DNA of 64,000 nt from an uncultured Bdellovibrionales bacterium (lineage in GTDB: Bacteria > Patescibacteriota > Minisyncoccia > Moranbacterales > UBA1568). Each line of letters opens with the position of its first letter. The stretch's first letter is position 1. Below are positions 10,701 through 56,353 of this stretch, piece after piece. Position numbers and translations under genes: made by a program. The notes below the pieces were generated by a model. That model did no database searches, was not told where the DNA came from, and saw only the letters and a list, made by a program, of their open reading frames with translations. The stretch covers positions 16,779-80,778 of the forward strand of contig CAYTED010000007.1 in the NCBI GenBank assembly GCA_964436855.1, in the 5' to 3' direction.

Positions 10701-10756
10701 AACTTTTTTATAAAAACTTGAGTGGAAAGCAGAAGAGAAAACAAAAACTCATACAG

Positions 10757-12103: not shown

Positions 12104-12105
12104 AG

Positions 12106-12375: not shown

Positions 12376-12407
12376 ATCCTCTTCTTAAATGAATGATTTG
12401 TTTTTCT

Positions 12408-12435
12408 ATTATACCTCCCCCATAGGTATCGTCAA
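12408..12435 (-). promoter_or_regulatory. csoR operon promoter (TTGACG - 16 nt - TATAAT) with embedded GC-rich pseudo-palindrome (candidate CsoR operator)
   Basis: Minus strand ttgacg-atacctatgggggaggtat-aat; inverted repeat ATACC...GGTAT around a G-tract, like described CsoR operators. Confidence 0.45.
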
Positions 12436-12480
12436 GAACAAAAAATCGCCCCTGTCGGAGCGATTGATAATTGAGATACG

Positions 12481-34076: not shown

Positions 34077-34850
34077 TTACGAACGCTTTAACCTCCATCC
34101 GGCCGCACTAATACCAATCACGTAGAGACCAAAGAGCGGCAAGGCAAGAAATGCCATTGTTATTCCACTTCCATCCGGCGTAACAATCGCGGAAAAAAGA
34201 ACAATCACAAATACAGCTCCGCGAAAATGCCGTTTCCAAAATTCGGGAGGGATAACTCCGGAACACGACAATGCAGCCATTCCAATCGGAAGGAGAAACG
34301 CAAGCCCCACCGAAATTGTCAGGAAAAACACGGATGATACGAAGTCGTCGAGTGCAAAAAAAGGCGCGACTCCGATCGGGTCGGAGAAGGAATAGAGAAG
34401 CGCAAACGTTTGTGGAATGATGATAAAAAATCCGACGGCACAACCACAGTAAAAAAGAAATACTGATGGAAAAAGGAAGCGAAAAAAAGTTTTTCGTTCC
34501 GTCTCTTTCAAAGCCGGGCGAAGATACTGAAAAAAAAGAAGGAGTCCAACCGGAAAAACAACAAGGATGGCAGTGAGAAATGCCATCATAATCGGTGCGA
34601 GAAATGACGAAACCGGTCCGAGTGCAACGACCGAAATACCTTCGGGAAGCAAGGTTTCTCTTGTAAAAAGAAAAAGATTTGTAGCAAAGCTCACCGAAGA
34701 AAACGATACGAAAGGAACCGTAATATTTCCAATTGTTCTTTCACTCGGACCAAGAAAAAAGAGTCCAAAAAAAACCAAAAAAAGAACGATTGTCCCTCGA
34801 ATGACTAATCGTTTGAAAGCACTCAATTCACTTGCAAGATACTCTCGCAT
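34077..34850 (-). CDS. tatC: Twin-arginine translocase subunit TatC
   Basis: 257 aa, 6 TM; SAIVTPDGSGITMAFLALPLFGLY is the characteristic TatC C-terminal region. Confidence 0.8.
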   Translation of the reverse strand: MREYLASELSAFKRLVIRGTIVLFLVFFGLFFLGPSERTIGNITVPFVSFSSVSFATNLFLFTRETLLPEGISVVALGPVSSFLAPIMMAFLTAILVVFPVGLLLFFQYLRPALKETERKTFFRFLFPSVFLFYCGCAVGFFIIIPQTFALLYSFSDPIGVAPFFALDDFVSSVFFLTISVGLAFLLPIGMAALSCSGVIPPEFWKRHFRGAVFVIVLFSAIVTPDGSGITMAFLALPLFGLYVIGISAAGWRLKRS

Positions 34851-34852
34851 AA

Positions 34853-36778
34853 TTACAACTCATCAAATACAAGCATTGCATTGTTATCGTTATCGTAGAC
34901 ACCAAGCTCGGTTGCGGAATCATTTTTCAAATATACGCCATTGCCAAACTTGAGAACGTTTTCGATAAAAATATTCCCATCTCCCGTCAGCGTGAGCGCG
35001 GGGCATGCATCATTATCGCAAACCCAGAGATTCTCGGAAAGTGCCCGGATATCCGATCCGGTTGCCGCAATTTGCAGATCTCCAACCGAATCAACGGTCA
35101 TTTCGCTATAATTCGTAAGATCCTTGGAAAGTCGCACTTGCGGAGCACTCGCGGCCTGTACCACTTCAAGCACGCGTGCCGGTGAAGCAGTTCCGATACC
35201 GACATTCCCCGTACCATCAATCACAAACGGTGTTGTATCACTCACTGCGTCATCCACCCGAACCGCAAGATTATTGGTTCCGGTCGCGCGATGATCTACG
35301 AAAAGCGAGGTATTTGCATTGAGCGCGCCGATATTGGAAACCGAGAGAACATTTCCGGTATTTGAAGCGCTCGAACCACTCAAGGAAATTCCCGCCAAAT
35401 TTCCGGTAAATGTGGTTGAACTCGAAGCGACAGTCAGCCCAGATCCAGATGTCAGTCCATTGGTTGTTATCGCAAGACCCGTTTCGCCATCGATTGAATT
35501 CGCTGTAAGATTCGCACCGTTTGCCGCATTCGAACTCTGCACGAGATCAAGTACCGCGATCGCTGCCGTTGTATTGTCTTGACTCACTTGAAGCGTAAAC
35601 GCCGAAAGATCGTTTCCCCCAGACGATGGGTTCTTGATAACAAGACCATCATCCGCGGCCGTCAGTGAAATCGTCGCATTTCCTCCATCGGCATCATTCC
35701 CATACGTCGTTTGAAGATCGCTTGATCCGCCCGTCCCGCAACCGGCATTGGTTTCATTACAGAGTGTTTTTGTTGTTCCTCCTTCATTGATTTTAAATTT
35801 TCCAGCCGCGGAGTCATACCAGATATCTCCCGCGGCCGCGCCGGTCGTTCCGGAAACGATCACAGAAAGAAAGTCTCCGGTTGCAACGGATACCCGGCCG
35901 GAAGCAGAATCAAGAGTAAGTCCGGATGATCCTCCGGATGAAAGCGTTACCGCGCCTGCGCCGGTATAGCTTTGACCCGCGGCGATAGAAACACCGCCCG
36001 TATCGACCGTAATCGAATCAGCGGTAAGCGCATCTTGCACATCGACAATTCCGGATCCATTCGCGAGTAAAACCAGCGATTCATTGGTTCCGGTCGTGAT
36101 ATCGGTCGTTGCACCGGTAAATGTCAGTCCTGTTGAACCAATGATTTTATTTGTCAGCGTCTGTCCCGTCGTCAGGTCAGCAAGCGTTATCGTCCCCGAT
36201 GGAAGGGTCGCGACCGTCGTCGCTGTCGAAGTTAAGGTGAGAGGAAATGCTCCGGATGTCGTAAAAGCATCTGCGAAAGAAACTGTTTTGCCGTTCGCGA
36301 TCGTCAATGTTCCGGTCGTATCCGTTACGGAAAGCCCGTGAACCTTGTCGGCATTGAATGCATACGGAACGGCGGTAAAGCGAACGCGCGGCGACATTTC
36401 GCCATCGCTATTAAATTCGATACCGAGGTAAATATTGTCGGTATTGAAATCAACCGATCCGGGAAGTGCCGTATGCGTTCCGAGTGCCACTTGAAACACG
36501 CCATCGGTAACCGTCACCTGTGTCGTGCCACTATTCCACGTTTCCGTCCAAATCGCTGCGCCACCGGATGAGACGGAATAAAGCTTGAAAACAAAGTCGT
36601 AACTTCCGTTCGACACATTCGTTCCGTCCGAATTCACGACTTTTCCCTGAAAGTTGATTTGTTTGTTGATGCCGGTCGCAGCAAATACGGTTCCCGAAAA
36701 AGCAAAAATTCCCCCGAAAAGAGCAAGGGTGATAATCGAAGAAAGGGTGATATTTTTGATATTTCGGATCTGCCGCAT
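34853..36778 (-). CDS. Large secreted cell-surface protein (641 aa) with N-terminal INFQGK beta-rich module
   Basis: Signal peptide ITLALFGGIFAFSGTVFA; INFQGKVVNSDGTNVSNGSYDFVFKLYS...SPRVRFTAVPYAF recalls a module recurrent in giant extracellular proteins; G/T/S-rich remainder. Confidence 0.65.
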   Translation of the reverse strand: MRQIRNIKNITLSSIITLALFGGIFAFSGTVFAATGINKQINFQGKVVNSDGTNVSNGSYDFVFKLYSVSSGGAAIWTETWNSGTTQVTVTDGVFQVALGTHTALPGSVDFNTDNIYLGIEFNSDGEMSPRVRFTAVPYAFNADKVHGLSVTDTTGTLTIANGKTVSFADAFTTSGAFPLTLTSTATTVATLPSGTITLADLTTGQTLTNKIIGSTGLTFTGATTDITTGTNESLVLLANGSGIVDVQDALTADSITVDTGGVSIAAGQSYTGAGAVTLSSGGSSGLTLDSASGRVSVATGDFLSVIVSGTTGAAAGDIWYDSAAGKFKINEGGTTKTLCNETNAGCGTGGSSDLQTTYGNDADGGNATISLTAADDGLVIKNPSSGGNDLSAFTLQVSQDNTTAAIAVLDLVQSSNAANGANLTANSIDGETGLAITTNGLTSGSGLTVASSSTTFTGNLAGISLSGSSASNTGNVLSVSNIGALNANTSLFVDHRATGTNNLAVRVDDAVSDTTPFVIDGTGNVGIGTASPARVLEVVQAASAPQVRLSKDLTNYSEMTVDSVGDLQIAATGSDIRALSENLWVCDNDACPALTLTGDGNIFIENVLKFGNGVYLKNDSATELGVYDNDNNAMLVFDEL

Positions 36779-37022: not shown

Positions 37023-37682
37023 TCAATTTTTTTCGAAAATTTCAATGGAAGAGAGAATTTCTTGCCATTCAGCCTCCGAAAAATCTCGAGAAGAATTCTT
37101 GGCGACATACGATAGCGCGAGTATCCGATCGGGACGAACAGAATAGATCGTTCGTTCAAACCCTTCGGCATCGTTCGAAAAAACACTCACTCGAACGCCA
37201 GCAATCGTCTCTTTTGTGTCTTTGTATCGTTTTGGGTCCGATTCCCGAAGCTTGAGACCGGAAAGCCCCCGATCTCCGGAGGGAAAAACGATATATGAGA
37301 GAGTCCTTGTTCCCGATTCGGCATTTGCCTCAAAATACGCTTGTTCCAAAACATTTTTCATTTCTCGATTTCGCTCAAGAAAGTCGAATGGATATCGAAA
37401 AGAAACATATTCTCCGGAAAAAACCTTTTTCTCCGGGGATTCTTCTGGCATGAATTCTCCCGTGTTTTGATATGTAATCACCCCAAGCGACGGCCCATTC
37501 ATCATTTTCCAGAAAAAATATCCAATCGCGAAAATCGCAACAAAAATGAGAGCAATAAGAACTCTCAAAGAAACTTTCTTCTTCGATTTTTTTTCTTCAG
37601 TTCCGACTATGATTGTACTGGTCGACTTTTCCTCCATATAACAAAAAGAAATATACAAAGAATAACTCCTCCCCCGATACAC
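37023..37682 (-). CDS. Hypothetical membrane-anchored protein
   Basis: TM helix VLIALIFVAIFAIGYFFW; no recognised domain. Confidence 0.45.
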   Translation of the reverse strand: MYRGRSYSLYISFCYMEEKSTSTIIVGTEEKKSKKKVSLRVLIALIFVAIFAIGYFFWKMMNGPSLGVITYQNTGEFMPEESPEKKVFSGEYVSFRYPFDFLERNREMKNVLEQAYFEANAESGTRTLSYIVFPSGDRGLSGLKLRESDPKRYKDTKETIAGVRVSVFSNDAEGFERTIYSVRPDRILALSYVAKNSSRDFSEAEWQEILSSIEIFEKN

Positions 37683-38539
37683 ACAAAGGAAATTGGGACG
37701 ATGAAATATGCCATTTTTTGGCTCTCAAAAGCTTTTTTTCCATCATAACGAATATTTATTTCGATCGTATACTTCCCCGGAAAATATGCTCGGTTGGCAG
37801 GGAGAAAACGAATTGGATATGCTTTCTCACTTTTCGGAAGAAGGAGCGATGAATTCTCATTCACAGTTCCTTTCGCGATCAATCTCCCAAATGGATCCTT
37901 AATATCGATTCTCCCTCGCGGAACAATATGAACGTTTCCGGCGTTCCGAAACGAAAGTGTCAGTGTTTCTGGAAGACCAATGAGAGGGCGTTCGACAGAA
38001 ACAGGCCGAAGATTCATCTCGTATACTGCGCCGCCTTCTTTTCGGATAAACACGAGGGCGGCGATGCGCTCATCAATATTGACATTTGTCGGACCGACAT
38101 TTTCAACTGGTTTTTTTTCCTGAAAGAGAAGCGCTCCATAATGACCTCCTGGGGAGAGTGCTCCCGTGTTGATAATGGTTCCGGAAAGCGTTGCTGATTC
38201 TTTTGCGGCAATACGTATTGTTTCCACCTGAAGCTCGATCCAATCCGCCGGATCGAATTCCTTTTCAATATCCTGATCCGATCCAAGAAACGCGACCCCC
38301 GCCGAAGATTCCAACCCGCCAAAATCGATTGCCAAAATGGAAAATTCCCGAGATTCTCCAGAGTTATTCGAAAGCTCGACTGTAAAAGGAACTCTCTCCT
38401 CATTTTGAATGATAATATCGCTCAAGTATGGATGAATCGTGATACCGATACCTGATTCATCGGCCGCAAAAGCTTTTTGGGGGAAAAAACCAAGTGCGAA
38501 AAAAAGAAAAAATACCAAAACTCGGCTTACGGAAGTCAT
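37607..38539 (-). CDS. Cell-surface protein with signal peptide and C-terminal TM anchor (DUF916-like architecture)
   Basis: Signal peptide LVFFLFFALGFFPQKAFAADE; C-terminal TM ISFVCIGGGVILCIFLFVIW; diverged paralog of the next two genes. Confidence 0.5.
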   Translation of the reverse strand: MTSVSRVLVFFLFFALGFFPQKAFAADESGIGITIHPYLSDIIIQNEERVPFTVELSNNSGESREFSILAIDFGGLESSAGVAFLGSDQDIEKEFDPADWIELQVETIRIAAKESATLSGTIINTGALSPGGHYGALLFQEKKPVENVGPTNVNIDERIAALVFIRKEGGAVYEMNLRPVSVERPLIGLPETLTLSFRNAGNVHIVPRGRIDIKDPFGRLIAKGTVNENSSLLLPKSEKAYPIRFLPANRAYFPGKYTIEINIRYDGKKAFESQKMAYFIVPISFVCIGGGVILCIFLFVIWRKSRPVQS

Positions 38540-38560: not shown

Positions 38561-39631
38561 TTATTCGCTCCGACGAAATCGACGGAGCATATTCCCGAGA
38601 GTCGATTTCATACCGACAAGTGCAAAGAGAAGAATCACTCCACCACCAATGAGAAGCCTCCACGGCATCACCCAAAATTCTACCACCCCCTCAATCGGAA
38701 CATCTCTCTTACCATCATCGTAGACCATGAGAAGTTTTGCTTGGTATTTGCCGAAGCGAAGATTGGAAGCATCTTTCCAATTCCAGGTAAGTTCTTTCAC
38801 GATATTTCCATGTTCATCGAGAACGGTTTGTCCATTTTCTTGTGTTTCGGTGTAGATCGGAAAGCCTTCAGCCCAGTCAGCACGGAAGGAACGGCTGGAA
38901 TCGGGGAGAATATTCCCCTTTCCCAAGTTCACTTCGATCGTTGAATCAGCCTTTTTCCCGGGACGTCCGATGAAGAGATTTCCCCGTGGAGCAACATGGA
39001 CATTCCCCGTATTTTTAAGTTTGACGGTGAAGGTTGTCGGGAGAAATTCATACCATTTCTTGTTAGATTCAAAGGAGGTGATAGAAACTTCACGTTTTGC
39101 ATTGGGAACTTTGACTTCAAGGAGAACAAGAACGGCCGTGCCTCCGGTGAGTTTTGTTTGTTGGGTTGATTCTTCTTTGTTGTGGTCATCGGCGCGAGAA
39201 AAGGTAACCGCGTAGTAGTAGCCAAGAGATGCGGTTTCGGGTGGTGTTACGGTGAGAGTAATCGTTTTCCATTCATTCGGAGCAATATCGAAAGTGGTGT
39301 CGGAGAAGGAAACGAAAGAAAGAGATTCGTCGCTTGGATCCGGATCGAGGAGCTCGGGAATACCGGTGTCTCCACTCGCGCGGAACTTGAGAAGCTCTAC
39401 TTTGAGCGTTTCTTTTTGAGTCCCTTCATTTCGAATACGAATGGGAGAAGAAACCGGATGACCCGGTTCGGTTACGAGGTTGATCGGAAGCGGTGAGGTG
39501 GTCAGACGGAGATCGGCGGTTTGGGCGGAGGCGGGAATGGAAAATGAAGAATAGAGAATGAGGAATGAAAAAACAGAGAAAAGAATTTTCTTGAGAAGGT
39601 GTTTCATTGTACTTGGGTGTCGAATCGGCAT
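38561..39631 (-). CDS. Cell-surface protein, signal peptide plus C-terminal TM anchor (DUF916-like), copy 1 of tandem pair
   Basis: Signal peptide ...ILYSSFSIPASAQTADL; C-terminal TM LIGGGVILLFALVGM. The central ~300 aa is identical to the next gene. Confidence 0.6.
   Translation of the reverse strand: MPIRHPSTMKHLLKKILFSVFSFLILYSSFSIPASAQTADLRLTTSPLPINLVTEPGHPVSSPIRIRNEGTQKETLKVELLKFRASGDTGIPELLDPDPSDESLSFVSFSDTTFDIAPNEWKTITLTVTPPETASLGYYYAVTFSRADDHNKEESTQQTKLTGGTAVLVLLEVKVPNAKREVSITSFESNKKWYEFLPTTFTVKLKNTGNVHVAPRGNLFIGRPGKKADSTIEVNLGKGNILPDSSRSFRADWAEGFPIYTETQENGQTVLDEHGNIVKELTWNWKDASNLRFGKYQAKLLMVYDDGKRDVPIEGVVEFWVMPWRLLIGGGVILLFALVGMKSTLGNMLRRFRRSE
38655..39575. repeat. Tandem direct repeat copy 1 (921 bp, 100% identical to 39742..40662)
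   Basis: Boundaries found by direct comparison of the two sequences. Identity starts at agcctccacgg and ends at gaatgaaaaaaca; period 1087 bp. Confidence 0.85.
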
Positions 39632-39644
39632 ACTTTTTTCTCTT

Positions 39645-40703
39645 TTATACCTGTCCCATTTTCAATTTTCGCATTTTTCGCTTCATCAGGAAGTACACAA
39701 ACAACGCCGGTACAACTGGAAGTGCGATACCAAAAAGAATCAGCCTCCACGGCATCACCCAAAATTCTACCACCCCCTCAATCGGAACATCTCTCTTACC
39801 ATCATCGTAGACCATGAGAAGTTTTGCTTGGTATTTGCCGAAGCGAAGATTGGAAGCATCTTTCCAATTCCAGGTAAGTTCTTTCACGATATTTCCATGT
39901 TCATCGAGAACGGTTTGTCCATTTTCTTGTGTTTCGGTGTAGATCGGAAAGCCTTCAGCCCAGTCAGCACGGAAGGAACGGCTGGAATCGGGGAGAATAT
40001 TCCCCTTTCCCAAGTTCACTTCGATCGTTGAATCAGCCTTTTTCCCGGGACGTCCGATGAAGAGATTTCCCCGTGGAGCAACATGGACATTCCCCGTATT
40101 TTTAAGTTTGACGGTGAAGGTTGTCGGGAGAAATTCATACCATTTCTTGTTAGATTCAAAGGAGGTGATAGAAACTTCACGTTTTGCATTGGGAACTTTG
40201 ACTTCAAGGAGAACAAGAACGGCCGTGCCTCCGGTGAGTTTTGTTTGTTGGGTTGATTCTTCTTTGTTGTGGTCATCGGCGCGAGAAAAGGTAACCGCGT
40301 AGTAGTAGCCAAGAGATGCGGTTTCGGGTGGTGTTACGGTGAGAGTAATCGTTTTCCATTCATTCGGAGCAATATCGAAAGTGGTGTCGGAGAAGGAAAC
40401 GAAAGAAAGAGATTCGTCGCTTGGATCCGGATCGAGGAGCTCGGGAATACCGGTGTCTCCACTCGCGCGGAACTTGAGAAGCTCTACTTTGAGCGTTTCT
40501 TTTTGAGTCCCTTCATTTCGAATACGAATGGGAGAAGAAACCGGATGACCCGGTTCGGTTACGAGGTTGATCGGAAGCGGTGAGGTGGTCAGACGGAGAT
40601 CGGCGGTTTGGGCGGAGGCGGGAATGGAAAATGAAGAATAGAGAATGAGGAATGAAAAAACAAGCCAAAAACAAATTTTTGAAGAAATCGAAAAAAAATT
40701 CAT
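39645..40703 (-). CDS. Cell-surface protein, signal peptide plus C-terminal TM anchor (DUF916-like), copy 2 of tandem pair
   Basis: Probable start MNFFSISSKICFWLVFSFLILYSSFSIPASA (ATG 40701-40703; ORF track extends to 40826); distinct C-terminal TM ILFGIALPVVPALFVYFLM. Confidence 0.6.
   Translation of the reverse strand: MNFFSISSKICFWLVFSFLILYSSFSIPASAQTADLRLTTSPLPINLVTEPGHPVSSPIRIRNEGTQKETLKVELLKFRASGDTGIPELLDPDPSDESLSFVSFSDTTFDIAPNEWKTITLTVTPPETASLGYYYAVTFSRADDHNKEESTQQTKLTGGTAVLVLLEVKVPNAKREVSITSFESNKKWYEFLPTTFTVKLKNTGNVHVAPRGNLFIGRPGKKADSTIEVNLGKGNILPDSSRSFRADWAEGFPIYTETQENGQTVLDEHGNIVKELTWNWKDASNLRFGKYQAKLLMVYDDGKRDVPIEGVVEFWVMPWRLILFGIALPVVPALFVYFLMKRKMRKLKMGQV
39742..40662. repeat. 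Tandem direct repeat copy 2 (921 bp)
   Basis: See copy 1. Confidence 0.85.
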
Positions 40704-40806: not shown

Positions 40807-41847
40807 CTAGAAAACACCTGCCGCAATGACTGTAAGTGTATCGGTATAATCCGTCGCCGCCGCTTGAACAGCGCTAATTTTTGCCCGTTCGATAAGCGTC
40901 ATCACATCTCCATCAGTCGGACCGGCAGGGTTATCGGAAAGAGCCACCAGCTGGAACGATGTTGAAAGCGTTCCACCCTGTGTGGTATCACCATCATATT
41001 CCGGTTCAACCGTAAAATTCCCCGATCCGGACGAACCTTGTGTCGTTGCATCCACATCAAGCACATACCCGGTAACGGAATCAAGATCCGACGGCGTTCC
41101 ATCAACCGATCCCGCGGTCGCAATCGATGCTCCTGCGGCAACCGAACTCAACGCCGCATTCGCACTTTTCACCCATGCTGCCCAACCGGAACCGGCATTT
41201 GTCGCCATAGTCGCCGTTACACCGGATGAGGAAGAAATCGATGAAGATGACAATGTTCCGAGAGAATCGGTGTTTCCGCCAAGACTGAAGGTAAAGGTCG
41301 CCGGAACGGTCGCGGAAACAACAATCTGATCATTAGAAATGATAGAAAGGGCATATGAACCGGTATCAATCGTTGCCGGACCACTAGTCCGTGTCACCAC
41401 GGTCCCTGTCTTATCATTCCCGGCGGACGAAGTGGTCAGTGTCGTTGTTCCGCTAAAGTTAAAACAATAGAGCGTCCCGACTACAAGATCTCCCGAAGGA
41501 AAGGTAACGGTTTGACTTGATACACTCGTGGCCGTTCCAATACCAACCCATGCAGTCGCACTCAACGGAAGGTTGGTCGTGGTTACTGTCCAGTTGGACG
41601 CCGTACCATTCACTGTAAATCCGGTAGGAAATGTCACCTGAACATCCGCTTCCGTACTCGCAGTTGCCGGCTTGGCGCATACCGTACCCCCAGTGGCTGT
41701 CGATGCCTTCAGTCGATCGAGTCGTAGAACGGTTTGCGTCATACTGGCAGCTTGCGCAGTGCCTCCCCAAAGAAACAATGGAAAAAATAAAGAAAAAAAA
41801 GAGATGAGAAGCGTCGGTACTCCAATCGTTATCCTATATCGATACAT
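40807..41847 (-). CDS. Secreted T/S/G-rich protein with conserved C-terminal strand ...DYTDTLTVIAAGVF
   Basis: Signal peptide LLISFFSLFFPLFLWGGTAQAASM; C-terminus shared with the next gene; contains SFQLVALSDNPAGP, loosely WxL-like. Confidence 0.5.
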   Translation of the reverse strand: MYRYRITIGVPTLLISFFSLFFPLFLWGGTAQAASMTQTVLRLDRLKASTATGGTVCAKPATASTEADVQVTFPTGFTVNGTASNWTVTTTNLPLSATAWVGIGTATSVSSQTVTFPSGDLVVGTLYCFNFSGTTTLTTSSAGNDKTGTVVTRTSGPATIDTGSYALSIISNDQIVVSATVPATFTFSLGGNTDSLGTLSSSSISSSSGVTATMATNAGSGWAAWVKSANAALSSVAAGASIATAGSVDGTPSDLDSVTGYVLDVDATTQGSSGSGNFTVEPEYDGDTTQGGTLSTSFQLVALSDNPAGPTDGDVMTLIERAKISAVQAAATDYTDTLTVIAAGVF

Positions 41848-41920: not shown

Positions 41921-42985
41921 TCAAAAGCTTCCGGAAGCAATAATGGTAATCGTCTCGGTATAATCCCCCGCAGCAGGAGTTACCGCTGATGATTTCGCTT
42001 TCAGAAGAAATGATGCTCGGCCGCCGGAAATCGGATTCGAGCTCGAAAAAATTTCCCGAATCGTCGTATCCGTTACTCCAACCGTATTCGAAGATCCGTC
42101 ATAGGGACTCACAATAGAAAACGGTCCGCCCGAAGACTGTGTTGCCGTCGACCCCTGTGCCCCAAATCCACTCGAGAACGCCGTCAAATTTCCGGAAGCA
42201 GAACTGATCGTATGATTCACGGTCGAACTATACAGTCCGGCATTGGCTGCACTCACATACACCTTTCCGCCCGATGCGCCATTCGTCGAAAAGTCCACCC
42301 ATATTTTTTCCGCACTATTCACCACGCTTCCCGCCGTCAAGTTTCCAAGGTCGATCGCTGTCACGCTATTGTCTTCATCGATCGCCGAGACGTCGATATC
42401 AAAAGTAAGCTGAGCGCTAACAGTCGCCGCAGTTGCAGTCGGCCCGTATCCGCTCTCGCTAAACTTTCCTTGCATCGCCTTCACCTTGATCTTATAGGTC
42501 GTGCTTGACGAAAGGCCAATCACATCGAATCCACTCGCTCCGCCCCATGCGGCATAGGTTTGATAATCCTCAATCCCAAGCGTCGCCCCAACAGTGTCAT
42601 CGCTCTGAATATAATTCGTCGTCACGAAGTTGTCCGTACTGATTGCGACTGCAAAAAGCGTGTCGCTCGGATTGCTTCCGGTATCCAGAACAATATGCAA
42701 TTTATTGTAATAATTACTCGGATTCGTAAACGTCGGCGCCGGAGGGACATTTGCCATTATTTCAAACGAAAGCCCCGCGCCAAGATCGTAATTTGTTCCT
42801 TGTAGCTCGTCTTCGCTCACCTCGCCCGCAAGTCCATCGATCGCATAATTCGACGACGTCATATTCTCCTTGCCGCCACCACCAAAACCATATCCTTCCA
42901 ACTGATAGTTCGTACTCGCGGGGAAAGCAAATAAAAACGCGAAACTCGCGGGGAAAAAAATCCTTGATCGTATTCGGCGAACCAT
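41921..42985 (-). CDS. Secreted T/S/G-rich protein with conserved C-terminal strand ...DYTETITIIASGSF
   Basis: Likely start MVRRIRSRIFFPASFAFLFAFPAST (ATG 42983-42985; ORF track extends to 43045). Confidence 0.5.
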   Translation of the reverse strand: MVRRIRSRIFFPASFAFLFAFPASTNYQLEGYGFGGGGKENMTSSNYAIDGLAGEVSEDELQGTNYDLGAGLSFEIMANVPPAPTFTNPSNYYNKLHIVLDTGSNPSDTLFAVAISTDNFVTTNYIQSDDTVGATLGIEDYQTYAAWGGASGFDVIGLSSSTTYKIKVKAMQGKFSESGYGPTATAATVSAQLTFDIDVSAIDEDNSVTAIDLGNLTAGSVVNSAEKIWVDFSTNGASGGKVYVSAANAGLYSSTVNHTISSASGNLTAFSSGFGAQGSTATQSSGGPFSIVSPYDGSSNTVGVTDTTIREIFSSSNPISGGRASFLLKAKSSAVTPAAGDYTETITIIASGSF

Positions 42986-43013
42986 ATCCGAACAAATGTA
43001 CATAAAAAAGAGA

Positions 43014-43490
43014 CTATCGGGATACCGACGCAATAGTCGTATCATTCGAATCGCATGCCTGAACCGTCACGATATTATTCGCATCCACCTGCACAGAATA
43101 CCGCGTGTGCGATGCGGATCCGTTCTCCGGATCATAAGGAATTGTTTTCAAATACCGCGCAAGCTCTCCCGAAAGATCGATACAATCACTTCCGCCAGAA
43201 ACACTACATACGTCCGTGCTTATGGCGCAGCCGGATCCGTCTGTCGATATTTCGCGCTCGGTCGTATCGAGGCCCGATGGCAACTCTCCACGATTATCCA
43301 CGATATACTGGTGAACCGCACTTAAAATGGATTGTATATCGGAAAGTCTGCGCGCGTCTCGAGCATCACGAAACCGCGTTGCTGGATCAAGCGATACGAT
43401 CACCACCGTTGCCAAAACCGCGATGATCCCAATCACGAGAAGAATTTCAAGAAGGGTAAAACCTTTTTTCTTTGTGTGTTTCGAAGTCAT
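43014..43490 (-). CDS. Type IV pilin (prepilin with class III signal)
   Basis: MTSKHTKKKG/FTLLEILLVIGIIAVLATVVIVSL: G-F-T-L-L-E prepilin peptidase site plus hydrophobic alpha1 helix; C-terminal Cys pair. Confidence 0.8.
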   Translation of the reverse strand: MTSKHTKKKGFTLLEILLVIGIIAVLATVVIVSLDPATRFRDARDARRLSDIQSILSAVHQYIVDNRGELPSGLDTTEREISTDGSGCAISTDVCSVSGGSDCIDLSGELARYLKTIPYDPENGSASHTRYSVQVDANNIVTVQACDSNDTTIASVSR

Positions 43491-43497
43491 ATATCAT

Positions 43498-43980
43498 TTA
43501 TTGTATCACATATTTCTCCGAAGAATCGCAAGCGCGAACCGTAATGCGATTTCCATTGCTCTCTCGCTCGATCGTATACCGAGTAAACTCGCTTGATCCG
43601 GATTCTGGATCTTCCGGAAGCGTCGGAAGATATGGTTTGAGTGCAGCGGAAAGATCGACGCAATCGGTCGTTCCGGAAACATGACAGACACTCGTCTCAA
43701 TTTCACATCCGGACTTTGCCGTTCCGATCTGACGCTCACGGGTATCGATACCATCCGGATATTTCCCCTTCTGGTCGATCAAATACTGATGTACCGCATT
43801 GGAAAGCGTTTGGATATCAGAGAGACGTCGCGACTCTCTCGCGTTTCGAAATCGCTCCGCCGGATCAAGTGTAATGACGATAATCGTCGCGAGAATAGCG
43901 ATAATCCCAACAACAATGAGAATTTCAAGCAATGTGAATCCTTGTTTTTTCCTCATATTTTTAGGTGTTATTATTTCCAA
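43498..43980 (-). CDS. Type IV pilin (paralog)
   Basis: MRKKQG/FTLLEILIVVGIIAILATIIVITL. Confidence 0.8.
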   Translation of the reverse strand: MEIITPKNMRKKQGFTLLEILIVVGIIAILATIIVITLDPAERFRNARESRRLSDIQTLSNAVHQYLIDQKGKYPDGIDTRERQIGTAKSGCEIETSVCHVSGTTDCVDLSAALKPYLPTLPEDPESGSSEFTRYTIERESNGNRITVRACDSSEKYVIQ

Positions 43981-44801
43981 AAAAAGAATCGCTTGATTGT
44001 TTTCGGCAAAGAATCCGAAAGATCGAGAATGGCGCGCTCTTTTCTGTATGGATGCGTATACGCGACACCGAAAATGGGATCGAGTGTTCTTGAAACGGTT
44101 TCGATATCAAGCGAGAGAGGCTTCAGCGTTTCTGCGTCGAATCCTGAGCAAATGATTTTCCGCGGCTCTTTTCCTTTTTTTTCCTTGCAAAAGCGCAGAA
44201 ACCCGGAGATATCGTCGACAGAAAAAGGTTTTCGCAGAAGGAGCGAAACGAGAATATTTCCCGATTCTGCGAATATCAAAAGAAGCGAATCTTCTGATTT
44301 TCGATGAAGAATCACAACAGATGCTTCTTCTTCCGTAAGCAGCGCGATCGCCGATGATTCGGGAATAATACTTTCAAATATTATCCCTTTTTCCATGTTC
44401 CATGCCAACAACTTGTCTGCCCAAGATTTTTTCAGTTCGGTTACCTCAAGAAGTGCTTGCGTCGTTCCAGAAGATACGACTTTGGAGTCCCAAAGGGTCG
44501 ACTCGCTTGATTCCGGAAAAAACGAATGGAGTTCATGCTTGAGAGTTTCAGGAGATCCCAACGAACTGTTTGGAAGCGTAACCGAAAACGTGTACACGCC
44601 TTCTTCGGAAACAACCAAGCGAATTCTTCTACCGAAATCAGAAACTAAGGAAAGCAGAGATTCATCTTCAAAACCGGATTGCACCGAATACGACTGCTCT
44701 CGAAAAACCGAGAGGTCTTTCGCATCCCGCGATACCACGGCCGCGCGAAGAGATGCTCCGTCAAAAAATCCCGCATTGTATTTTTTCTTTCCGAATATCA
44801 T
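43971..44801 (-). CDS. Putative pilus assembly protein (PilM-like actin-fold?)
   Basis: Position inside the pilus cluster; N-terminus GFFDGASLRAAVVSRDAKDLSVF weakly resembles the PilM N-terminal beta-hairpin; no strong motif. Confidence 0.35.
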   Translation of the reverse strand: MIFGKKKYNAGFFDGASLRAAVVSRDAKDLSVFREQSYSVQSGFEDESLLSLVSDFGRRIRLVVSEEGVYTFSVTLPNSSLGSPETLKHELHSFFPESSESTLWDSKVVSSGTTQALLEVTELKKSWADKLLAWNMEKGIIFESIIPESSAIALLTEEEASVVILHRKSEDSLLLIFAESGNILVSLLLRKPFSVDDISGFLRFCKEKKGKEPRKIICSGFDAETLKPLSLDIETVSRTLDPIFGVAYTHPYRKERAILDLSDSLPKTIKRFFFWK

Positions 44802-44815
44802 ACCTTCATTGTACC

Positions 44816-45202
44816 CTATGACGATTGTTCAATCCACGACCCAAGCACCAATCCGGTTGGCGTGATTGTTAGCACGACACGGATCGTCCGCTCATATCCA
44901 TCGCGGTTTGCCGTTACAAGAACCGTTCGCTCATCTCCATTCGATGCAATCGACACATCGCAATCTCCCTCCGGAAGATTCACGATCGATGCCGAGTATC
45001 CGGAGTCGTTTCGAAGTCGAAGAATTACGTCTTCCGTGCAGCTCTCGGAAAGAAGCAAAGAAGAGTATCCCTTTTCCAAAGCAAGGTCCGTTCGCCCGCC
45101 CTCAACCGAAAGCATCAAGGCCGCCAAAGAAAGCGGGATAGAAATCGCAAGTAAAAGACCGACAACAAGAAATGTGGAAAATCCGCGAAACACTTTGTTC
45201 AT
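44816..45202 (-). CDS. Hypothetical bitopic membrane protein in pilus cluster (PilN/O-like role possible)
   Basis: N-terminal TM FSTFLVVGLLLAISIPLSLAAL; context only. Confidence 0.35.
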   Translation of the reverse strand: MNKVFRGFSTFLVVGLLLAISIPLSLAALMLSVEGGRTDLALEKGYSSLLLSESCTEDVILRLRNDSGYSASIVNLPEGDCDVSIASNGDERTVLVTANRDGYERTIRVVLTITPTGLVLGSWIEQSS

Positions 45203-45220
45203 ACAAGATACATACTGATT

Positions 45221-45745
45221 TTATTCGGGCAAATGAGAACTTCGGGTATCTGCGGCTCCACGAAACAGCATACTCGTCTGAAATACCGATTCACCCCCGG
45301 ATACTCCCCGATCCGGCTCAAAAACAATCTGATACCCTATCCCATCCGAACGATTACTTGAAAGCGAATAGTCTTCAAATTGAAGACTGGTAACTCGAAT
45401 ATCCGTACTCGAGAGCGCAACCTCGCCCGTCCCGTCATCGAGAAACATACGCTCATCTCGGAGAAAAATCGCCATCGTACCGCTTGCGCCGACTTTCCCC
45501 AATTCGATTCGATCCACCGCAACCGAATCGACACTTTCCGCGTTTCGGATAACATACTCTATTCGTTCGGTTATCGCCCTCCCTTCTTGGGAGGTGGAAT
45601 GAATAAGAAGTCTTTTGAGATTTTGTTCGGAAACAGTCAGCGCAAACGAAATAATGGTCGTCAAAACGATCGACAAAAGCCCGATAACCAAAAGAATCTC
45701 GATAAGAGTGAATCCCCCGGAAAATCGGGGTTGTTTCGTTTTCAT
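45221..45745 (-). CDS. Minor pilin / pseudopilin
   Basis: G/FTLIEILLVIGLLSIVLTTIISF prepilin N-terminus. Confidence 0.7.
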   Translation of the reverse strand: MKTKQPRFSGGFTLIEILLVIGLLSIVLTTIISFALTVSEQNLKRLLIHSTSQEGRAITERIEYVIRNAESVDSVAVDRIELGKVGASGTMAIFLRDERMFLDDGTGEVALSSTDIRVTSLQFEDYSLSSNRSDGIGYQIVFEPDRGVSGGESVFQTSMLFRGAADTRSSHLPE

Positions 45746-46212
45746 AGCGGTTCATCCCAATACGTAAAGTACGTCGAAAACTGAATATTTTCCGTTTCTC
45801 CGTAAAACGTATTCCAATCAACGGCGACGGTTACTTTTTTTGTTTTTTCATCACTCGTATTTCCGCTTTCCACAATATCCCCTCCGTCTCGATACGCATC
45901 TTCAATGGTAATAGTCCGCGAATATTTGTCGAAATAATCCCCGCCGCCGCCCAACACAAAGGTTCCGTCGGAAAACCGAATACCTTCGCCGGAAACCGAC
46001 CCGACTTCTGCAAACTGATCTCGAAGAATGAGTCGTGTCATCTCCATTCCCTCGCGGGCATAGGCGATTGCTCCCGAAAACTCGGCGTTTCTTCGTTCAT
46101 TTGAAAGAGTTTGCACGAGAATGCCAACAACGGCCGATGAAAAAACGGCGAATATTGCTATTAAGAAAATCACTTCGATCAAAGAGAACCCCCGATGATT
46201 GTTTGCGCACAT
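45742..46212 (-). CDS. Minor pilin / pseudopilin
   Basis: G/FSLIEVIFLIAIFAVFSSAVVG; 4-nt overlap with downstream gene. Confidence 0.7.
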   Translation of the reverse strand: MCANNHRGFSLIEVIFLIAIFAVFSSAVVGILVQTLSNERRNAEFSGAIAYAREGMEMTRLILRDQFAEVGSVSGEGIRFSDGTFVLGGGGDYFDKYSRTITIEDAYRDGGDIVESGNTSDEKTKKVTVAVDWNTFYGETENIQFSTYFTYWDEPL

Positions 46213-46215
46213 ATA

Positions 46216-46659
46216 TTACTCTTCAATAAAAGCCCCCTCTTCATTGAAAGAAAAATTTTTCGTTTTTCCGAAACCGGAAATGTGGAGATTGGCAATCGTA
46301 CCGCTCACCTTCCCTGTGTCGCGCGCCGCGACCACCTCATCGAAACCGGATATCGTCACGCCATACGGAAGATCATATACCGCATCAAGCGCCGCCATAC
46401 GCGCATCGTAGCTTGATCCCTGAAAAAAAACGAGAGAATCATCCCGAAGTGCGACTCCCCACTGCGAATCATTTCGTCCCTCCATCGAAAAGAGCTGCGC
46501 TTCACGAATATCTGACCGCAGGGTTTCAAAAGCGATATCCGTTCCTTGTCCGAAAAAAAAATTTCCGGAAAGAAGGGCAGTAAGAACTCCAATCGTCGAT
46601 ACGATCGCAAGAACGAGAATTATTTCAATAAACGTAAATCCTTTTTCTTTCGATATCAT
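46216..46659 (-). CDS. Minor pilin / pseudopilin
   Basis: G/FTFIEIILVLAIVSTIGVLTALL. Confidence 0.7.
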   Translation of the reverse strand: MISKEKGFTFIEIILVLAIVSTIGVLTALLSGNFFFGQGTDIAFETLRSDIREAQLFSMEGRNDSQWGVALRDDSLVFFQGSSYDARMAALDAVYDLPYGVTISGFDEVVAARDTGKVSGTIANLHISGFGKTKNFSFNEEGAFIEE

Positions 46660-46671
46660 ACAACAACCCCC

Positions 46672-47715
46672 TTATCGGCGAACCGCCCCGGTCAACGAAT
46701 AAATTGGCGAGAGAATCGCAAGCGCGATGAATACCACTACCGATGCAATGACAATAAGCAGCACCGGCTCAAGCACCACCGTGAAATTCTTCGCACTTCG
46801 ATCCACCTCGTCATCAAGAAAATTACTCAAATAGAGAAACGTATCCGAAAGTTTTCCCGATTGTTCCCCGGCGGCGATCATTTTCACAACAACCGACGGC
46901 ACGAGAAACGAATACTGCGCCGAAAGTTCTTCCGAAACCGACTTTCCCTCCAGTACCGCCCGATGGATATTTCTCGCCATATCGGAAAAAGCGAGATTCA
47001 TCATTGATCGCTCCTCCACAAAAAGCGCCTGCGAAAGTGGAAGCCCGCTCGAAAGCATTACTCCCATATCTCGAAAAAATTGCGCCAAATATACACTTCG
47101 AAGAAACCCCCCAAGAAGCGGCAGGCGGAGCAGCAATCGATGCCAGTGTGGACGGATAATCGGAAGAAGCGTAGCAATTCGAATACCGATCAGTATTGCG
47201 ATACCCGAAATAAAAATCGCGATTCCATGCGCTTTCATCAGCGCCGCAAACCACAAAAGCGCCTGCGTTGAGAGCGGAAGTCCGGTTTCAAACGAATCAA
47301 AGAGTTTGACGAGTTTTGGAAGAATGAACACACTAATCAAGCTCGCAAGCGTGACGGCGGTCAGGAAAACTATCGTCGGATAGAGAAGAATGCTTTCAAT
47401 CTTTTTTCGCAATTGATACGATTTTTCCAGCTGTAAAGCGAGAAATTCGAGATTTTTCGAAAGTGTTCCGGACTGTTCACCGATAACGATCAAATTGATA
47501 TAGAGATGACTAAACACTTTCGGATGCCGCTTCAGCGCGTGTGCGAGCATCTGACCGTTTTCGACATCACCGATAATGGCGGTAATGATTTTTCGCATTG
47601 CGGAAAACTGTGATTGTTCGTACAAGGAGCTTAACGCTTCCCGAAGCGAAACACCGCTCTTCAAAAGAACGGCAAGTTCCCGCGTAAATAAAAGTCGCTC
47701 GACATTTTGAATCAT
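46672..47715 (-). CDS. pilC: Type IV pilus inner-membrane platform protein (GspF/PilC family)
   Basis: 347 aa; two GspF-type repeats; 3 TM segments; operon position after pilB. Confidence 0.9.
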   Translation of the reverse strand: MIQNVERLLFTRELAVLLKSGVSLREALSSLYEQSQFSAMRKIITAIIGDVENGQMLAHALKRHPKVFSHLYINLIVIGEQSGTLSKNLEFLALQLEKSYQLRKKIESILLYPTIVFLTAVTLASLISVFILPKLVKLFDSFETGLPLSTQALLWFAALMKAHGIAIFISGIAILIGIRIATLLPIIRPHWHRLLLRLPLLGGFLRSVYLAQFFRDMGVMLSSGLPLSQALFVEERSMMNLAFSDMARNIHRAVLEGKSVSEELSAQYSFLVPSVVVKMIAAGEQSGKLSDTFLYLSNFLDDEVDRSAKNFTVVLEPVLLIVIASVVVFIALAILSPIYSLTGAVRR

Positions 47716-47733
47716 AAAAAATCGTACGTTCGT

Positions 47734-49434
47734 CTATTCTCGGGAGACTCGGATCACCTCTTCAAGCGTCGTCAATCCGTTTTTCACCTTCAAGAGTCCA
47801 TCTTCGAGCATAGTGCGCATTCCGTTTTCCCGCGCAAGTGATTCGATATCGTTGGAATTTTTCCGATCAACAATTGCCCTTCGGATATCATCGTCCAACA
47901 AAAGCACCTCAAAAATACCCGTCCGCCCCTGAAACCCTGTTCCATGACACGCGTCGCACCCTTTCCCATAATACATCCGGACTGTATCGGTTTTCTCCTG
48001 AATTCCGAATGCCTCGTTTATACTCTTTAGGTCAATCTCCCGATAAAGTTCCCGTGCCGAAACTTCCTTGCTGACCCGGCATCCCTCGTGAATTTTTCGA
48101 ACCAGACGCTGCGCAATAATTGCGTTTACGGTCGTCGTTACAAGAAATGGCTCGATGCCAAGATCGAGCAGTCGAGGAATCGACGTTGCAGCGTTGTTTG
48201 TATGAAGCGTCGAAAGTACGAGATGACCCGTCATCGCAAGGTTTACCGCGATTCCTGCGGTTTCATCATCACGCACTTCTCCAACTAAAATAATATTCGG
48301 ATCCTGACGAAGAATACTTCGAAGCCCCGTCGCAAAGGTGAGATTTGCGTCGATATTCACTTGAATCTGATTCACGCCTTCGACATCGTATTCAACCGGA
48401 TCCTCGATCGTCATAATATTTACGTTTCGACGATTGAGAAGTTTTAAAAATGAATACAACGTTGTCGTCTTTCCGCACCCTGTCGGTCCTGTTACGAGTA
48501 CCATACCGTATGGTTTCTGATACGCCTCTTGAATTTTCAAGAGATCCTCGGATCCAATACCAAGATTCGAGAGCGAGAATTGCCGGGACCGATCCGAAAG
48601 AAGCCGCAAAACTACCTTCTCTCCATTCGTAATCGGGATGATTGAGACACGAATATCAATCGACTCTTCTTCGATGGTTACTTGCAATTTTCCATCCTGT
48701 GGCACTTGATGTTCGTCTGTCCGGAGATTCGCGAGAACCTTGATTCGTGATACCACTTGCGGGTGCAATTCTGATGGAAGTTTGGCGATGTCGTGCAACA
48801 CACCATCGATACGAAAACGGATCAGCGCGTCATGATCGCGAGGTTCCAAGTGAATATCCGACGCCTTGTTCTGAAACGCATACCCGAAAAGTGCGTCTAC
48901 CACGCGAATAATCGGCGGATCAATATCAGAAATAACGCTTTTCCTGGCGGCTTCCAAATTGTCTTTCAGAATATCCTCGAATGCCTCCGAAGCGCTTTTT
49001 CGATAGAGGCTGATCACTTCCGAAATATCGCGCTCCGTCGCATAGAATCTCCGGATAATACATCCGGTTTTCCGCTCAAGAAAGTTAAAAAATTCAAGAT
49101 TCTCCGGATCTGAAGTCGCTACGCTCACATTTTCCTTTTCAATCGCAAACACCATGGCGTGACTTTTCCGCGCCACCAGTTCGGGAAGAGTTCGAAAAAC
49201 CGATTCGGGAATCGTTTTATTCCGAAGATTTACAAACGGTATCTTGAAATGCTCGGCAATCAATTTCCCCAATTCTTCATCGGAAAGGAAATTATGCCAC
49301 AAAATTGCTTCTCGGAGCGTCGTCTCTTCAAGATCGGCACGCTCAACGGCAATATCGATATTTTCCTTGGAAACAAGACCATAGCCGAGAAGCATTCCTT
49401 CGAGCGCTTCCCGAGAAATAATATCCACTTTCAT
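47734..49434 (-). CDS. pilB: Type IV pilus assembly ATPase (GspE/PilB family)
   Basis: 566 aa; Walker A VTGPTGCGKTTTL; Asp box; His box; tetracysteine CDACHGTG near C-terminus. Confidence 0.95.
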   Translation of the reverse strand: MKVDIISREALEGMLLGYGLVSKENIDIAVERADLEETTLREAILWHNFLSDEELGKLIAEHFKIPFVNLRNKTIPESVFRTLPELVARKSHAMVFAIEKENVSVATSDPENLEFFNFLERKTGCIIRRFYATERDISEVISLYRKSASEAFEDILKDNLEAARKSVISDIDPPIIRVVDALFGYAFQNKASDIHLEPRDHDALIRFRIDGVLHDIAKLPSELHPQVVSRIKVLANLRTDEHQVPQDGKLQVTIEEESIDIRVSIIPITNGEKVVLRLLSDRSRQFSLSNLGIGSEDLLKIQEAYQKPYGMVLVTGPTGCGKTTTLYSFLKLLNRRNVNIMTIEDPVEYDVEGVNQIQVNIDANLTFATGLRSILRQDPNIILVGEVRDDETAGIAVNLAMTGHLVLSTLHTNNAATSIPRLLDLGIEPFLVTTTVNAIIAQRLVRKIHEGCRVSKEVSARELYREIDLKSINEAFGIQEKTDTVRMYYGKGCDACHGTGFQGRTGIFEVLLLDDDIRRAIVDRKNSNDIESLARENGMRTMLEDGLLKVKNGLTTLEEVIRVSRE

Positions 49435-49448
49435 AACGGAAGAAATCG

Positions 49449-49832
49449 TTACGCGAGATAATTCTTAATTTTCACTACGAGATCATTGATCGGCACATTC
49501 GACTTGATGATATATTCCTTCGCGCCAAGATTCATAACTCGTTTCACATCTTCTTCTTGGCTTAGATTCGAAAGAACAATAACCGGAACATCTTTCAGGG
49601 TTTCATTTTTCTTCATTTCCTCCAGTGTCTGGAAGCCGTCTTTTCCCGGCATAATGAGATCAAGCACGACGAGTGCGGGTTTCTTTTCCGTAGCTATCTT
49701 CAGCGCCTTGTCGCCATCTCCGGCGAGTGCCGCCGCCAAACCTTCTTTCTCAATCTTCGTTTTATAAATACTCGAATAAAACGGATCATCTTCAACGATC
49801 AGTACGTATTTTTCTTCGCTCATATGTTTCAA
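49449..49832 (-). CDS. Single-domain response regulator (CheY-like receiver)
   Basis: 127 aa; VLIVEDD, phospho-acceptor D in VLDLIMPGKDG, conserved K. Confidence 0.85.
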   Translation of the reverse strand: MKHMSEEKYVLIVEDDPFYSSIYKTKIEKEGLAAALAGDGDKALKIATEKKPALVVLDLIMPGKDGFQTLEEMKKNETLKDVPVIVLSNLSQEEDVKRVMNLGAKEYIIKSNVPINDLVVKIKNYLA

Positions 49833-49843
49833 TTAATGCTGAA

Positions 49844-55756: not shown

Positions 55757-56353
55757 TTATTTCACGTTCTTTTGCAATTCAGCAAGCGCTCCTCCGTTCC
55801 ACTTGGTAACGACATTGCCTGATGCATCGATCTGAACGTATGTGTGCTGATAGGTTACCCCGTACTTTGCTGCAAGCGCTTTTTCTTCGGCATCGGTCTG
55901 CGGGTCATTGTAATTCACCCGAATCACCGTCACATCACTCGGAATTTCAGCCTTTTTTGCCTGAAATGCGGCATCGGCCGGTTTACAGATTGGGCACCAG
56001 CTCGCATAAAAGAAAAGTACGCGACGGGTATTTTTTGCTCCATCAAACGCTGCCTTTGAATACTCGACATATCGGTCCGATGACTTCACCATAGCATCAT
56101 CCTTCTTCATCATCTTGTCATCGTCATCTTTTTTTATCATCGCATCGTCTTCTTCTTTCACTGTTTTTTCATCCTCCTTCATCATTTTTTCATCTTCTTC
56201 TTTTTTTATCATTGCCTTCTCTTCTTCCTCCTTTATCATCTTTTCATCCTTCTGCTTCTGCATCATGGCATCGTCTTTTGAACCTGATTGGGTCAAGATC
56301 CATGCTCCTCCCAGGACAACAATGGCCCCGATAATAATTACTAATAACTTCAT
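55757..56353 (-). CDS. Secreted thioredoxin-like protein with Met/Asp/Glu/Lys-rich repetitive linker
   Basis: Signal anchor; linker DDAMMQKQKDEKMIKEEEEKAMIKKEEDEKMMKEDEK...DDAMIKKDDDDKMMKKDDAMVK; catalytic SWCPICK. Confidence 0.75.
   Translation of the reverse strand: MKLLVIIIGAIVVLGGAWILTQSGSKDDAMMQKQKDEKMIKEEEEKAMIKKEEDEKMMKEDEKTVKEEDDAMIKKDDDDKMMKKDDAMVKSSDRYVEYSKAAFDGAKNTRRVLFFYASWCPICKPADAAFQAKKAEIPSDVTVIRVNYNDPQTDAEEKALAAKYGVTYQHTYVQIDASGNVVTKWNGGALAELQKNVK

Follow-up and report, generated by a model that had tools for sequence, protein, structure and literature searches.

Twin surface-protein genes of a Patescibacteria genome carry a signature of concerted evolution confined to the ectodomain

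The stretch of DNA considered here (the window) comprises 64,000 nucleotides, positions 16,779 to 80,778 of contig CAYTED010000007.1 in GenBank assembly GCA_964436855.1, which is deposited as an uncultured Bdellovibrionales bacterium and placed by GTDB within the Patescibacteriota (Minisyncoccia; Moranbacterales; UBA1568). The window carries two adjacent genes for membrane-anchored surface proteins, which share a 921-bp repeat without a single base difference but end in dissimilar membrane tails. These twin genes are very probably old tandem paralogs with distinct anchors, in which recombination between the adjacent copies keeps the ectodomain DNA identical within the genome. Gene conversion between bacterial paralogs is well known. 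In the Candidate Phyla Radiation (CPR)/Patescibacteria, genomes are tiny and paralogs few, and the cells rely on surface contact with their hosts; to our knowledge, almost none of their surface proteins are understood.

The twin genes and the extent of the repeat

Both copies of the repeat are found inside intact, tandem open reading frames (ORFs) of the minus strand. The features of the locus are as follows.

38561..39631, minus strand: gene 1, the downstream copy, 356 aa (P0242); the ectodomain of gene 2 followed by a type-A membrane tail (LIGGGVILLFALVGMKSTLGNMLRRFRRSE)
39645..40703, minus strand: gene 2, 352 aa (P0001), the copy lying upstream; a type-B membrane tail (ILFGIALPVVPALFVYFLMKRKMRKLKMGQV) after a signal peptide and two Ig-like domains
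38655..39575, minus strand: repeat copy 1, the putative converted tract in gene 1; distal signal peptide and whole ectodomain to PWRL
39742..40662, minus strand: repeat copy 2, the same tract in gene 2
39576..39741, minus strand: unique middle segment of 166 bp between the two repeat copies, as read from the sequence

A first-pass annotation had described the repeat as perfect with a period of 1087 bp, and direct string comparison bears this out, as 38655-39575 and 39742-40662 agree at 921 of 921 bases with an offset of 1087 bp; a repeat scan, which reports no more than 300 nt of a repeat, gave the same offset. The edges are sharp, with per-base identity at ~25-35% within a few bases beyond both ends. 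Such a match cannot be a product of chance (~4^-921). Self-BLAST of the whole window found it to be the sole long repeat, with one further match of 115 bp at 76%. The identity covers every synonymous site, and hence selection at the protein level cannot explain it. No inverted repeats were found around the locus. The reading of the repeat as a mobile or phage element was rejected, since a phage collection searched with it gave no match.

The stretch common to both genes starts within the hydrophobic core of the signal peptide (..FSFLILYSSFSIPASAQ..) and reaches as far as ..EFWVMPWRL. The middle segment holds the type-B tail of gene 2 (its last 31 residues), the stop codon, a 13-nt spacer, and the start of gene 1 with the proximal part of its signal peptide. 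The first-pass annotation had assigned the two genes an identical ectodomain with distinct N- and C-terminal ends. This is right for the ORFs, whose ends do differ, and is to be refined for the mature proteins: these would differ only in the C-terminal 30-31 residues (membrane helix and cytoplasmic tail), because the predicted signal-peptidase site ASA|Q falls within the part encoded by the repeat.

The AlphaFold2 (AF2) model of the gene 1 product (mean predicted local distance difference test score, pLDDT, 75.5) consists of a signal-peptide helix, two beta-sandwich domains with strands in residues 43-146 and 165-321, and a C-terminal helix at 324-355. The family counts 1031 database proteins at E <= 0.001, carried mainly by metagenome-assembled genomes (MAGs) of Candidatus Moranbacteria and other Patescibacteria and annotated as hypothetical throughout. 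Pfam and NCBIfam scans of both genes gave sub-threshold Fn3-like matches only, the best Pfam family being fn3_5, which stayed under its cut-off for the window protein. A PDB sequence-profile search with the family alignment returned nothing meaningful, and literature searches found no description of the family.

Gene order and tail types in related loci

The comparison set comprises 79 loci from species-representative genomes and one contig from the European Nucleotide Archive (ENA), 80 in total, with family genes located by a hidden Markov model (HMM); individual loci and contigs carry L numbers below. The order of the locus is conserved, with zero to two upstream copies, one downstream copy, and a divergent paralog (C). 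The copy number ranges from 1 to 3 across the relatives. Three tail types recur, namely type A (..F.F.G.(K/R)ST...IW(R/K)..F.), type B (..(I/V)P..PAL.VY..MK.(R/K)M(R/K)K.), and type B' (..NF.LI.GL.LYVIRLRR.LK.). Where the tail of a single-copy locus can be classified, it is always of type A (29/29). In two-copy loci that can be classified, B or B' is found upstream in 26 of 26 and A downstream in 24 of 26. Unsupervised clustering of the first 32 tail residues recovered the types completely (A 53/53, B 17/17, B' 13/13), with the tail of gene 2 grouped among the type-B tails of 16 other copies.

Some loci are irregular. The ENA contig (L001) has three copies at 8914-12850. Their tails are B', B, and an aberrant, A-like one (..SSSSVSVPRFAISGIRYSRKHRARTDSSAIL), which has the look of a type A altered by a frameshift; copies 2 and 3 are separated by an insertion of two small, unrelated genes, of which one is DUF5674. 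In L048 (8112-9139) a third family copy is split into two overlapping ORFs, a sign either of a frameshift or pseudogene or of a sequencing error. L055 (5980-9117) has the unusual order A, divergent paralog, B.

Concerted evolution of the ectodomain

The history of the ectodomain differs from that of the tail. When the core is taken as the ~840 nt from the TSPLP motif to PW[RK], the nearest core in the whole data set is that of the same-locus partner for 59 of 59 copies of multi-copy loci, whereas the nearest tail belongs to the same-locus partner for 0 of 59. By global alignment, tails of the same locus are 25% identical, against 97% for their cores, and unrelated tails of different types are 23% identical; tails of the same type are 37% identical across genomes, against 59% for the cores. 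Of 37 same-locus pairs, 25 have cores that are identical to 99.4% or more, and uninterrupted matches reach ~820-990 bp; orthologous cores are 55-89% identical at the protein level. The tails are of different types, each conserved across genomes in the same gene order; therefore, the paralogs are old and only the ectodomains are young.

This aspect is best seen in sister genomes. In the sets L057/L066/L069 and L001/L011, the cores have diverged by ~11% between genomes and are identical inside each, while the tails pair across genomes, and hence homogenisation went on after speciation.

The boundaries of the identical tracts are also informative. At the 3' side, the tract ends 0-22 nt past the PW[RK] codon in 25 of 25 high-identity pairs, which is the junction of ectodomain and transmembrane (TM) helix. 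The 5' end is less regular, at 12 to 141 nt before TSPLP, and lies in the signal-peptide region or even ahead of the start codon. Two loci are mosaic. In L059 identity is 100% over the first ~300 nt of the core and 57-72% beyond them, and in L001 copy 1 is 75-95% identical to copies 2 and 3 over the first ~300 nt and 100% thereafter. Ten pairs are nearly identical yet distinguishable, namely the three L001 pairs (96.3-99.8%) and those of L012, L031, L036, L042, L047, L048, and L066 (99.4-99.9%); as a few sites separate the copies, each was resolved independently.

The closeness of copies within a genome, the orthology of the unconverted parts, the mosaic tracts, and the synonymous identity are all found here. 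Together they are the classical signature of concerted evolution in which ancient paralogs undergo gene conversion or unequal exchange. Gene conversion had been among the causes proposed in the first-pass annotation, and the contrast between nearest cores and nearest tails, the tail types, and the mosaics strongly support it.

A very recent duplication had been proposed beside it. According to this explanation, part of the gene was duplicated in this lineage without any conversion and the ends diverged or were recruited later, which would account for zero differences over 921 bp and for the head-to-tail tandem that a fresh duplication is expected to leave. The tails, however, are mutually dissimilar and yet have orthologs of their own type in many genomes, including distant ones, in the same order, and they group by type across genomes rather than by genome. 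The sister genomes, too, have diverged cores that are internally identical and tails that pair across genomes. An identical partial duplication, with the same end points and the same foreign tails, would have had to arise dozens of times. A recent duplication is thus contradicted and is highly unlikely.

Copy-number alleles and the question of an assembly artefact

A collapse or expansion during assembly would leave one true copy and a false tandem duplication made by the assembler. The copies are indeed 100% identical, repeats that exceed the read length are error-prone in MAG assemblies, and an otherwise identical one-copy contig (L082) exists in another sample. Several observations speak against the artefact. 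The middle segment joins a complete type-B tail and stop codon in frame to a new start and signal peptide, so that its source must be a tandem arrangement. The order of B followed by A matches that of orthologous loci in dozens of genomes from different assemblers, and the same architecture occurs in about 25 independent assemblies. Likewise, the ten near-identical pairs, including those of the three-copy L001, would be impossible for a loop traversed twice, and since these related pairs are distinguishable, a double traversal of a collapsed loop is excluded for them; the two loci with mosaic partial tracts point in the same direction.

Two independent Logan assemblies of the same organism, reached via the neighbouring protein P0121, provide further evidence. 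Contig L081 (SRR12229868) is 100% identical to window 49847-40633 and ends 30 nt into repeat copy 2. Logan presumably uses k = 31, so that 30 nt equals k-1, and the end of L081 is as expected of a true graph branch at the entrance of a repeat. With this break, the recurrent architecture, the distinguishable pairs, the mosaics, and the tandem-only middle segment taken together, an artefact is very improbable.

Contig L082 (SRR30303844) consists of the left flank, one repeat copy, and the right flank, that is, the window minus one 1087-bp unit, with one mismatch located 7 nt from the contig end. The 166-bp middle segment is absent from it, and its gene product (P0241, 351 aa) is a chimera of the N-terminus of gene 2 and the type-A tail of gene 1. 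We infer that L082 is a genuine one-copy deletion allele of the same strain in another sample, because a middle segment present at the level of the flanks should have broken a de Bruijn contig. The first-pass annotation had advised a look for population variants with one or three copies; the putative one-copy allele comes from another sample of this strain, and three copies are seen in the relative L001. Joint Genome Institute (JGI) metagenomes searched with a 43-nt sequence of the middle segment gave no match, and a JGI search for close relatives returned two contigs only, both ending inside a family gene.

Contig ends are common at these genes. Many contigs of relatives (L040, L041, L044, L045, L058, L083, L084, and L085) begin or break off within a family gene or a short way upstream. 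For L040, L044, and L045 the end is close to the 3' edge of the converted core, and L041 is a 1.1-kb contig that is mostly core. This suggests that exact repeats routinely fragment short-read assemblies at these loci and that copy number in MAGs is underestimated. Some of the contigs with distinguishable pairs bear Flye-style names and measure 0.2-0.7 Mb, which suggests that they may be long-read assemblies.

A proposed mechanism of module-restricted homogenisation and its limits

The family would be one of Patescibacteria-wide, membrane-anchored surface proteins with a signal peptide, two Ig-like domains, a C-terminal TM helix, and a short basic cytoplasmic tail, in which the anchor differs between paralogs (type B upstream and type A downstream). 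Homologous recombination between adjacent copies, whether by gene conversion or unequal crossing-over and presumably dependent on RecA, would repeatedly overwrite one ectodomain with the other. The outcome would be ectodomain DNA that is identical within a genome and diverges between genomes. At the 3' side the tract invariably stops where homology ends, at the junction of ectodomain and TM helix, and presumably cannot enter the tails because these share no homology. The tail types are mutually dissimilar and yet each is conserved across genomes, which implies that selection keeps them distinct; each would thus be under purifying selection, to judge from its conservation across distant Patescibacteria. 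The 921-bp direct repeats would also permit the deletion of one unit, leaving a single chimeric gene with the 5' end of gene 2 and a type-A tail. The cell would appear to benefit from one ectodomain displayed on two or three different anchors, and the identity of the ectodomains might be selected, for co-assembly or a common partner, or might be a neutral result of adjacency.

Some points weigh against this explanation. Conversion is not universal, since 12 of the 37 pairs, mostly labelled Saccharibacteria, have a core identity of 66-80% only; the existence of such unconverted pairs means that homogeneity is not obligatory, and because of them it may be a neutral by-product of adjacency. The two-copy structure of the window contig is supported only indirectly. 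Bubble popping in short-read assembly together with double loop traversal may erase a few real differences, so that the 100% identity may be slightly overstated, and L082, with its one copy, might in principle be a product of the assembler and not a true allele. The functional analogy with WxLIP anchors, taken up below, is weak.

Surface-protein variation by recombination, as suggested in the first-pass annotation, stands in part. Copy-number variants do arise, as the one-copy chimeric allele indicates, and recombination homogenises the proteins instead of diversifying them. A programmed form, that is, antigenic or phase variation by recombination through, for example, switching of anchor or copy number in the evasion of phages or the attachment to hosts, would agree with one-copy and two-copy alleles of the same strain in different samples, with 1 to 3 copies across relatives, and with surface proteins encoded beside adhesin-like genes. 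Against it, there are no silent cassettes, both copies being complete genes, and neither inverted repeats around the locus nor a recombinase among the adjacent ORFs scanned. Moreover, deletion of the middle segment is irreversible and hence no switch. Programmed variation is accordingly most unlikely.

Neighbouring genes and context in the window

The genes on either side of the twin genes are listed below.

37607..38539, minus strand: third, divergent paralog C, 310 aa; signal peptide, ectodomain and C-terminal TM helix; outside the converted tract
40807..41847, minus strand: secreted Ser/Thr-rich protein, 346 aa, ending ..AATDYTDTLTVIAAGVF; conserved partner upstream, with 1782 homologs
41921..43003, minus strand: paralog of the 346-aa protein, ending ..AAGDYTETITIIASGSF; 360 aa in Logan records, with the ORF reaching 43045 (374 aa)
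40781-40764, minus strand: terminator-like hairpin upstream of gene 2, from consensus scan and sequence
40756-40728, minus strand: promoter-like TGGAAA-17-TATAAT after the hairpin and upstream of gene 2, from consensus scan and sequence

Paralog C matches the family HMM weakly (56 bits, E 1.8e-16), and in nearly all related loci the A copy is likewise followed by a counterpart of C. Neither repeat scan nor self-BLAST shows nucleotide similarity of paralog C to the repeat, and C has no Pfam or NCBIfam match. The counts of terminator-like and promoter-like signals in the region are not above chance, so that the hairpin and the promoter are merely suggestive.

The two Ser/Thr-rich paralogs (40807-41847 and 41921-43045) conserve a motif at the extreme C-terminus (..DYT(D/E)T(L/I)T(V/I)IA.G.F), and a 38-nt direct repeat of 76% identity connects their C-terminal coding ends. 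A DYTxTLTV-like C-terminal motif occurs upstream of the family genes in 55 of 65 loci, and the Ser/Thr-rich paralogs are likely partners of the anchored proteins. Neither the 346-aa nor the 374-aa protein has a Pfam or NCBIfam match, and a PDB profile search with an alignment of the Ser/Thr-rich neighbour gave nothing meaningful. The AF2 model of the 346-aa protein (pLDDT 50) has an N-terminal beta-sandwich only, with the C-terminal half unmodelled.

Directly upstream of the Ser/Thr-rich genes lies a type IV pilus-like cluster (43014-52186, minus strand), which includes a response regulator and the following genes.

49844-52186, minus strand: PAS/HAMP histidine kinase
47734-49434, minus strand: T2SSE/PilB-like ATPase
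46672-47715, minus strand: T2SSF platform protein
43014-43490 and 43498-43980, minus strand: prepilin-type proteins, at least two

The linkage of pilus and repeat genes is present in the close relatives L001 and L083 and absent from most related loci, a prepilin motif being found within 5 kb upstream in 6 of 65 loci only. The reading of the twin genes as pilus accessories was dropped, since this linkage is not conserved.

Three genes downstream of the repeat genes, a 641-aa secreted protein is encoded (34853-36778, minus strand). Its N-terminal region matches NCBIfam NF053851 'Bdello_MAT_N' (E 5e-9, 36 bits, under the 60-bit cut-off), an entry that NCBIfam describes as the mosaic adhesive trimer chimeric fibre protein of Bdellovibrio. 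A fibre-adhesin-like protein would be notable in a presumed episymbiont. Other genes give context.

34077-34850, minus strand: TatC (E 2.6e-36)
22306-23625, minus strand: NiFe-hydrogenase large-subunit-like protein
53981-55726, minus strand: DsbD-TM/thioredoxin fusion

A 72-bp tandem repeat of 2.2 copies with 76% matches lies at 56097-56252. No tRNA or Rfam RNA genes were found in the 64-kb window.

Significance

Literature searches found no report of concerted evolution in surface proteins of Patescibacteria. The process at the twin-gene locus is known, but the example is new, clean, and widespread, in a surface-protein family as yet uncharacterised and a phylum little studied, and it is a clear natural case of module-restricted concerted evolution in bacteria. 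The locus shows a widespread, unannotated family to be kept in two or three copies, with outward parts subject to continual homogenisation and membrane anchors that remain distinct. The anchors are indicated as the functionally differentiated part, and the idea of a WxLIP-like holder of the neighbouring secreted proteins is testable. There is also a practical consequence. As the family genes break or collapse short-read assemblies, MAGs are no reliable guide to their copy number, and trees of orthologs in this family will mislead.

A broader proposal may be considered tentatively, although it is rather unlikely as a whole. Selection across Patescibacteria, and not neutral recombination alone, would maintain a single ectodomain on two or three functionally distinct anchors, as a bacterial analogue of paired receptors or paralog isoforms; A, B, B', and C might form a hetero-oligomeric platform that holds the Ser/Thr-rich proteins; and the B isoform would be readily lost by deletion. 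If so, the ready deletion of the B-anchored isoform would create cell-surface heterogeneity in episymbiont populations.

Comparison with known systems

A parallel in fold and architecture is found in the WxLIP proteins (DUF916-DUF3324-TM helix) of Firmicute WxL/Csc surface-protein clusters. WxLIP proteins have a signal peptide, two Ig-like domains, and a TM helix in 337-365 aa, share a conserved N-terminal motif NQIDKxxxYFDLK, and are encoded with two WxL proteins, which they are proposed to bind by strand insertion (PMC10599100). The twin proteins (352 and 356 aa) resemble them in their signal peptide and, in the AF2 model, in two Ig-like domains and a C-terminal TM helix, and the gene neighbourhood is parallel in that conserved secreted proteins are encoded just upstream. 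The top Foldseek match in PDB is Enterococcus faecium WxLIP bound to a long WxL protein (9i25_C, E 1.4e-9); solved WxLIP structures for comparison are PDB 9i1y and 9i25. By analogy, the ectodomain may hold or present the upstream-encoded Ser/Thr-rich proteins.

The analogy is weakened by several results. The Foldseek TM-scores are low (0.31-0.38), with almost equal scores for chaperone-usher chaperones and other PapD-like folds. PF06030 (WxLIP_PGBD/DUF916) reached E 0.05 or weaker in 5 of 17 members, and the two upstream secreted paralogs have no Pfam WxL domain. PF11797 (DUF3324) has no match listed among the family members scanned, and the NQIDKxxxYFDLK motif is absent from the family alignment, where the consensus reads LRLxTSPLPINLVTEPG. 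Membership of the WxLIP family was rejected on these sequence-defined tests (PF06030, PF11797, the NQIDK motif, and WxL neighbours). That the twin proteins work like WxLIP is possible, though on balance doubtful. The fold also matches the chaperones CfaA and CsuC (E ~1e-9). A PapD-like chaperone of the chaperone-usher type was rejected as well, the AF2 model being TM-anchored and no usher domain being found among the scanned neighbouring ORFs of the window or the called genes of related loci.

With respect to the evolutionary process, tufA/tufB and the rRNA operons are the familiar bacterial duplicates that undergo concerted evolution by RecA-dependent gene conversion. They resemble the twin genes in that paralogs are closer than orthologs, synonymous sites are identical, and tracts end with homology. 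Unlike them, the twin genes homogenise the ectodomain module only and keep two or three ancient anchor types, and they are adjacent and encode surface proteins rather than core components of translation.

Recombination between surface paralogs has a parallel in Helicobacter pylori, where the paralogous outer-membrane adhesin genes babA and babB recombine. As in the twin genes, chimeric alleles and changes of copy number arise within populations. The pattern is reversed, however: in babA/babB recombination in the conserved ends exchanges the variable middle and so yields diversity, whereas in the twin genes the middle is homogenised and the ends remain distinct.

A further parallel is offered by the paired receptors of vertebrates, which differ in their tails, these being signalling tails of known function. 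In the CEA family, concerted evolution through gene conversion keeps the ectodomains alike (PMC7042247). The CEACAM paired receptors are eukaryotic, and the likeness is one of evolutionary logic only and not of homology; like the twin genes, they place a ligand-facing ectodomain maintained by conversion on differing TM and cytoplasmic parts, with a sharp membrane-proximal boundary.

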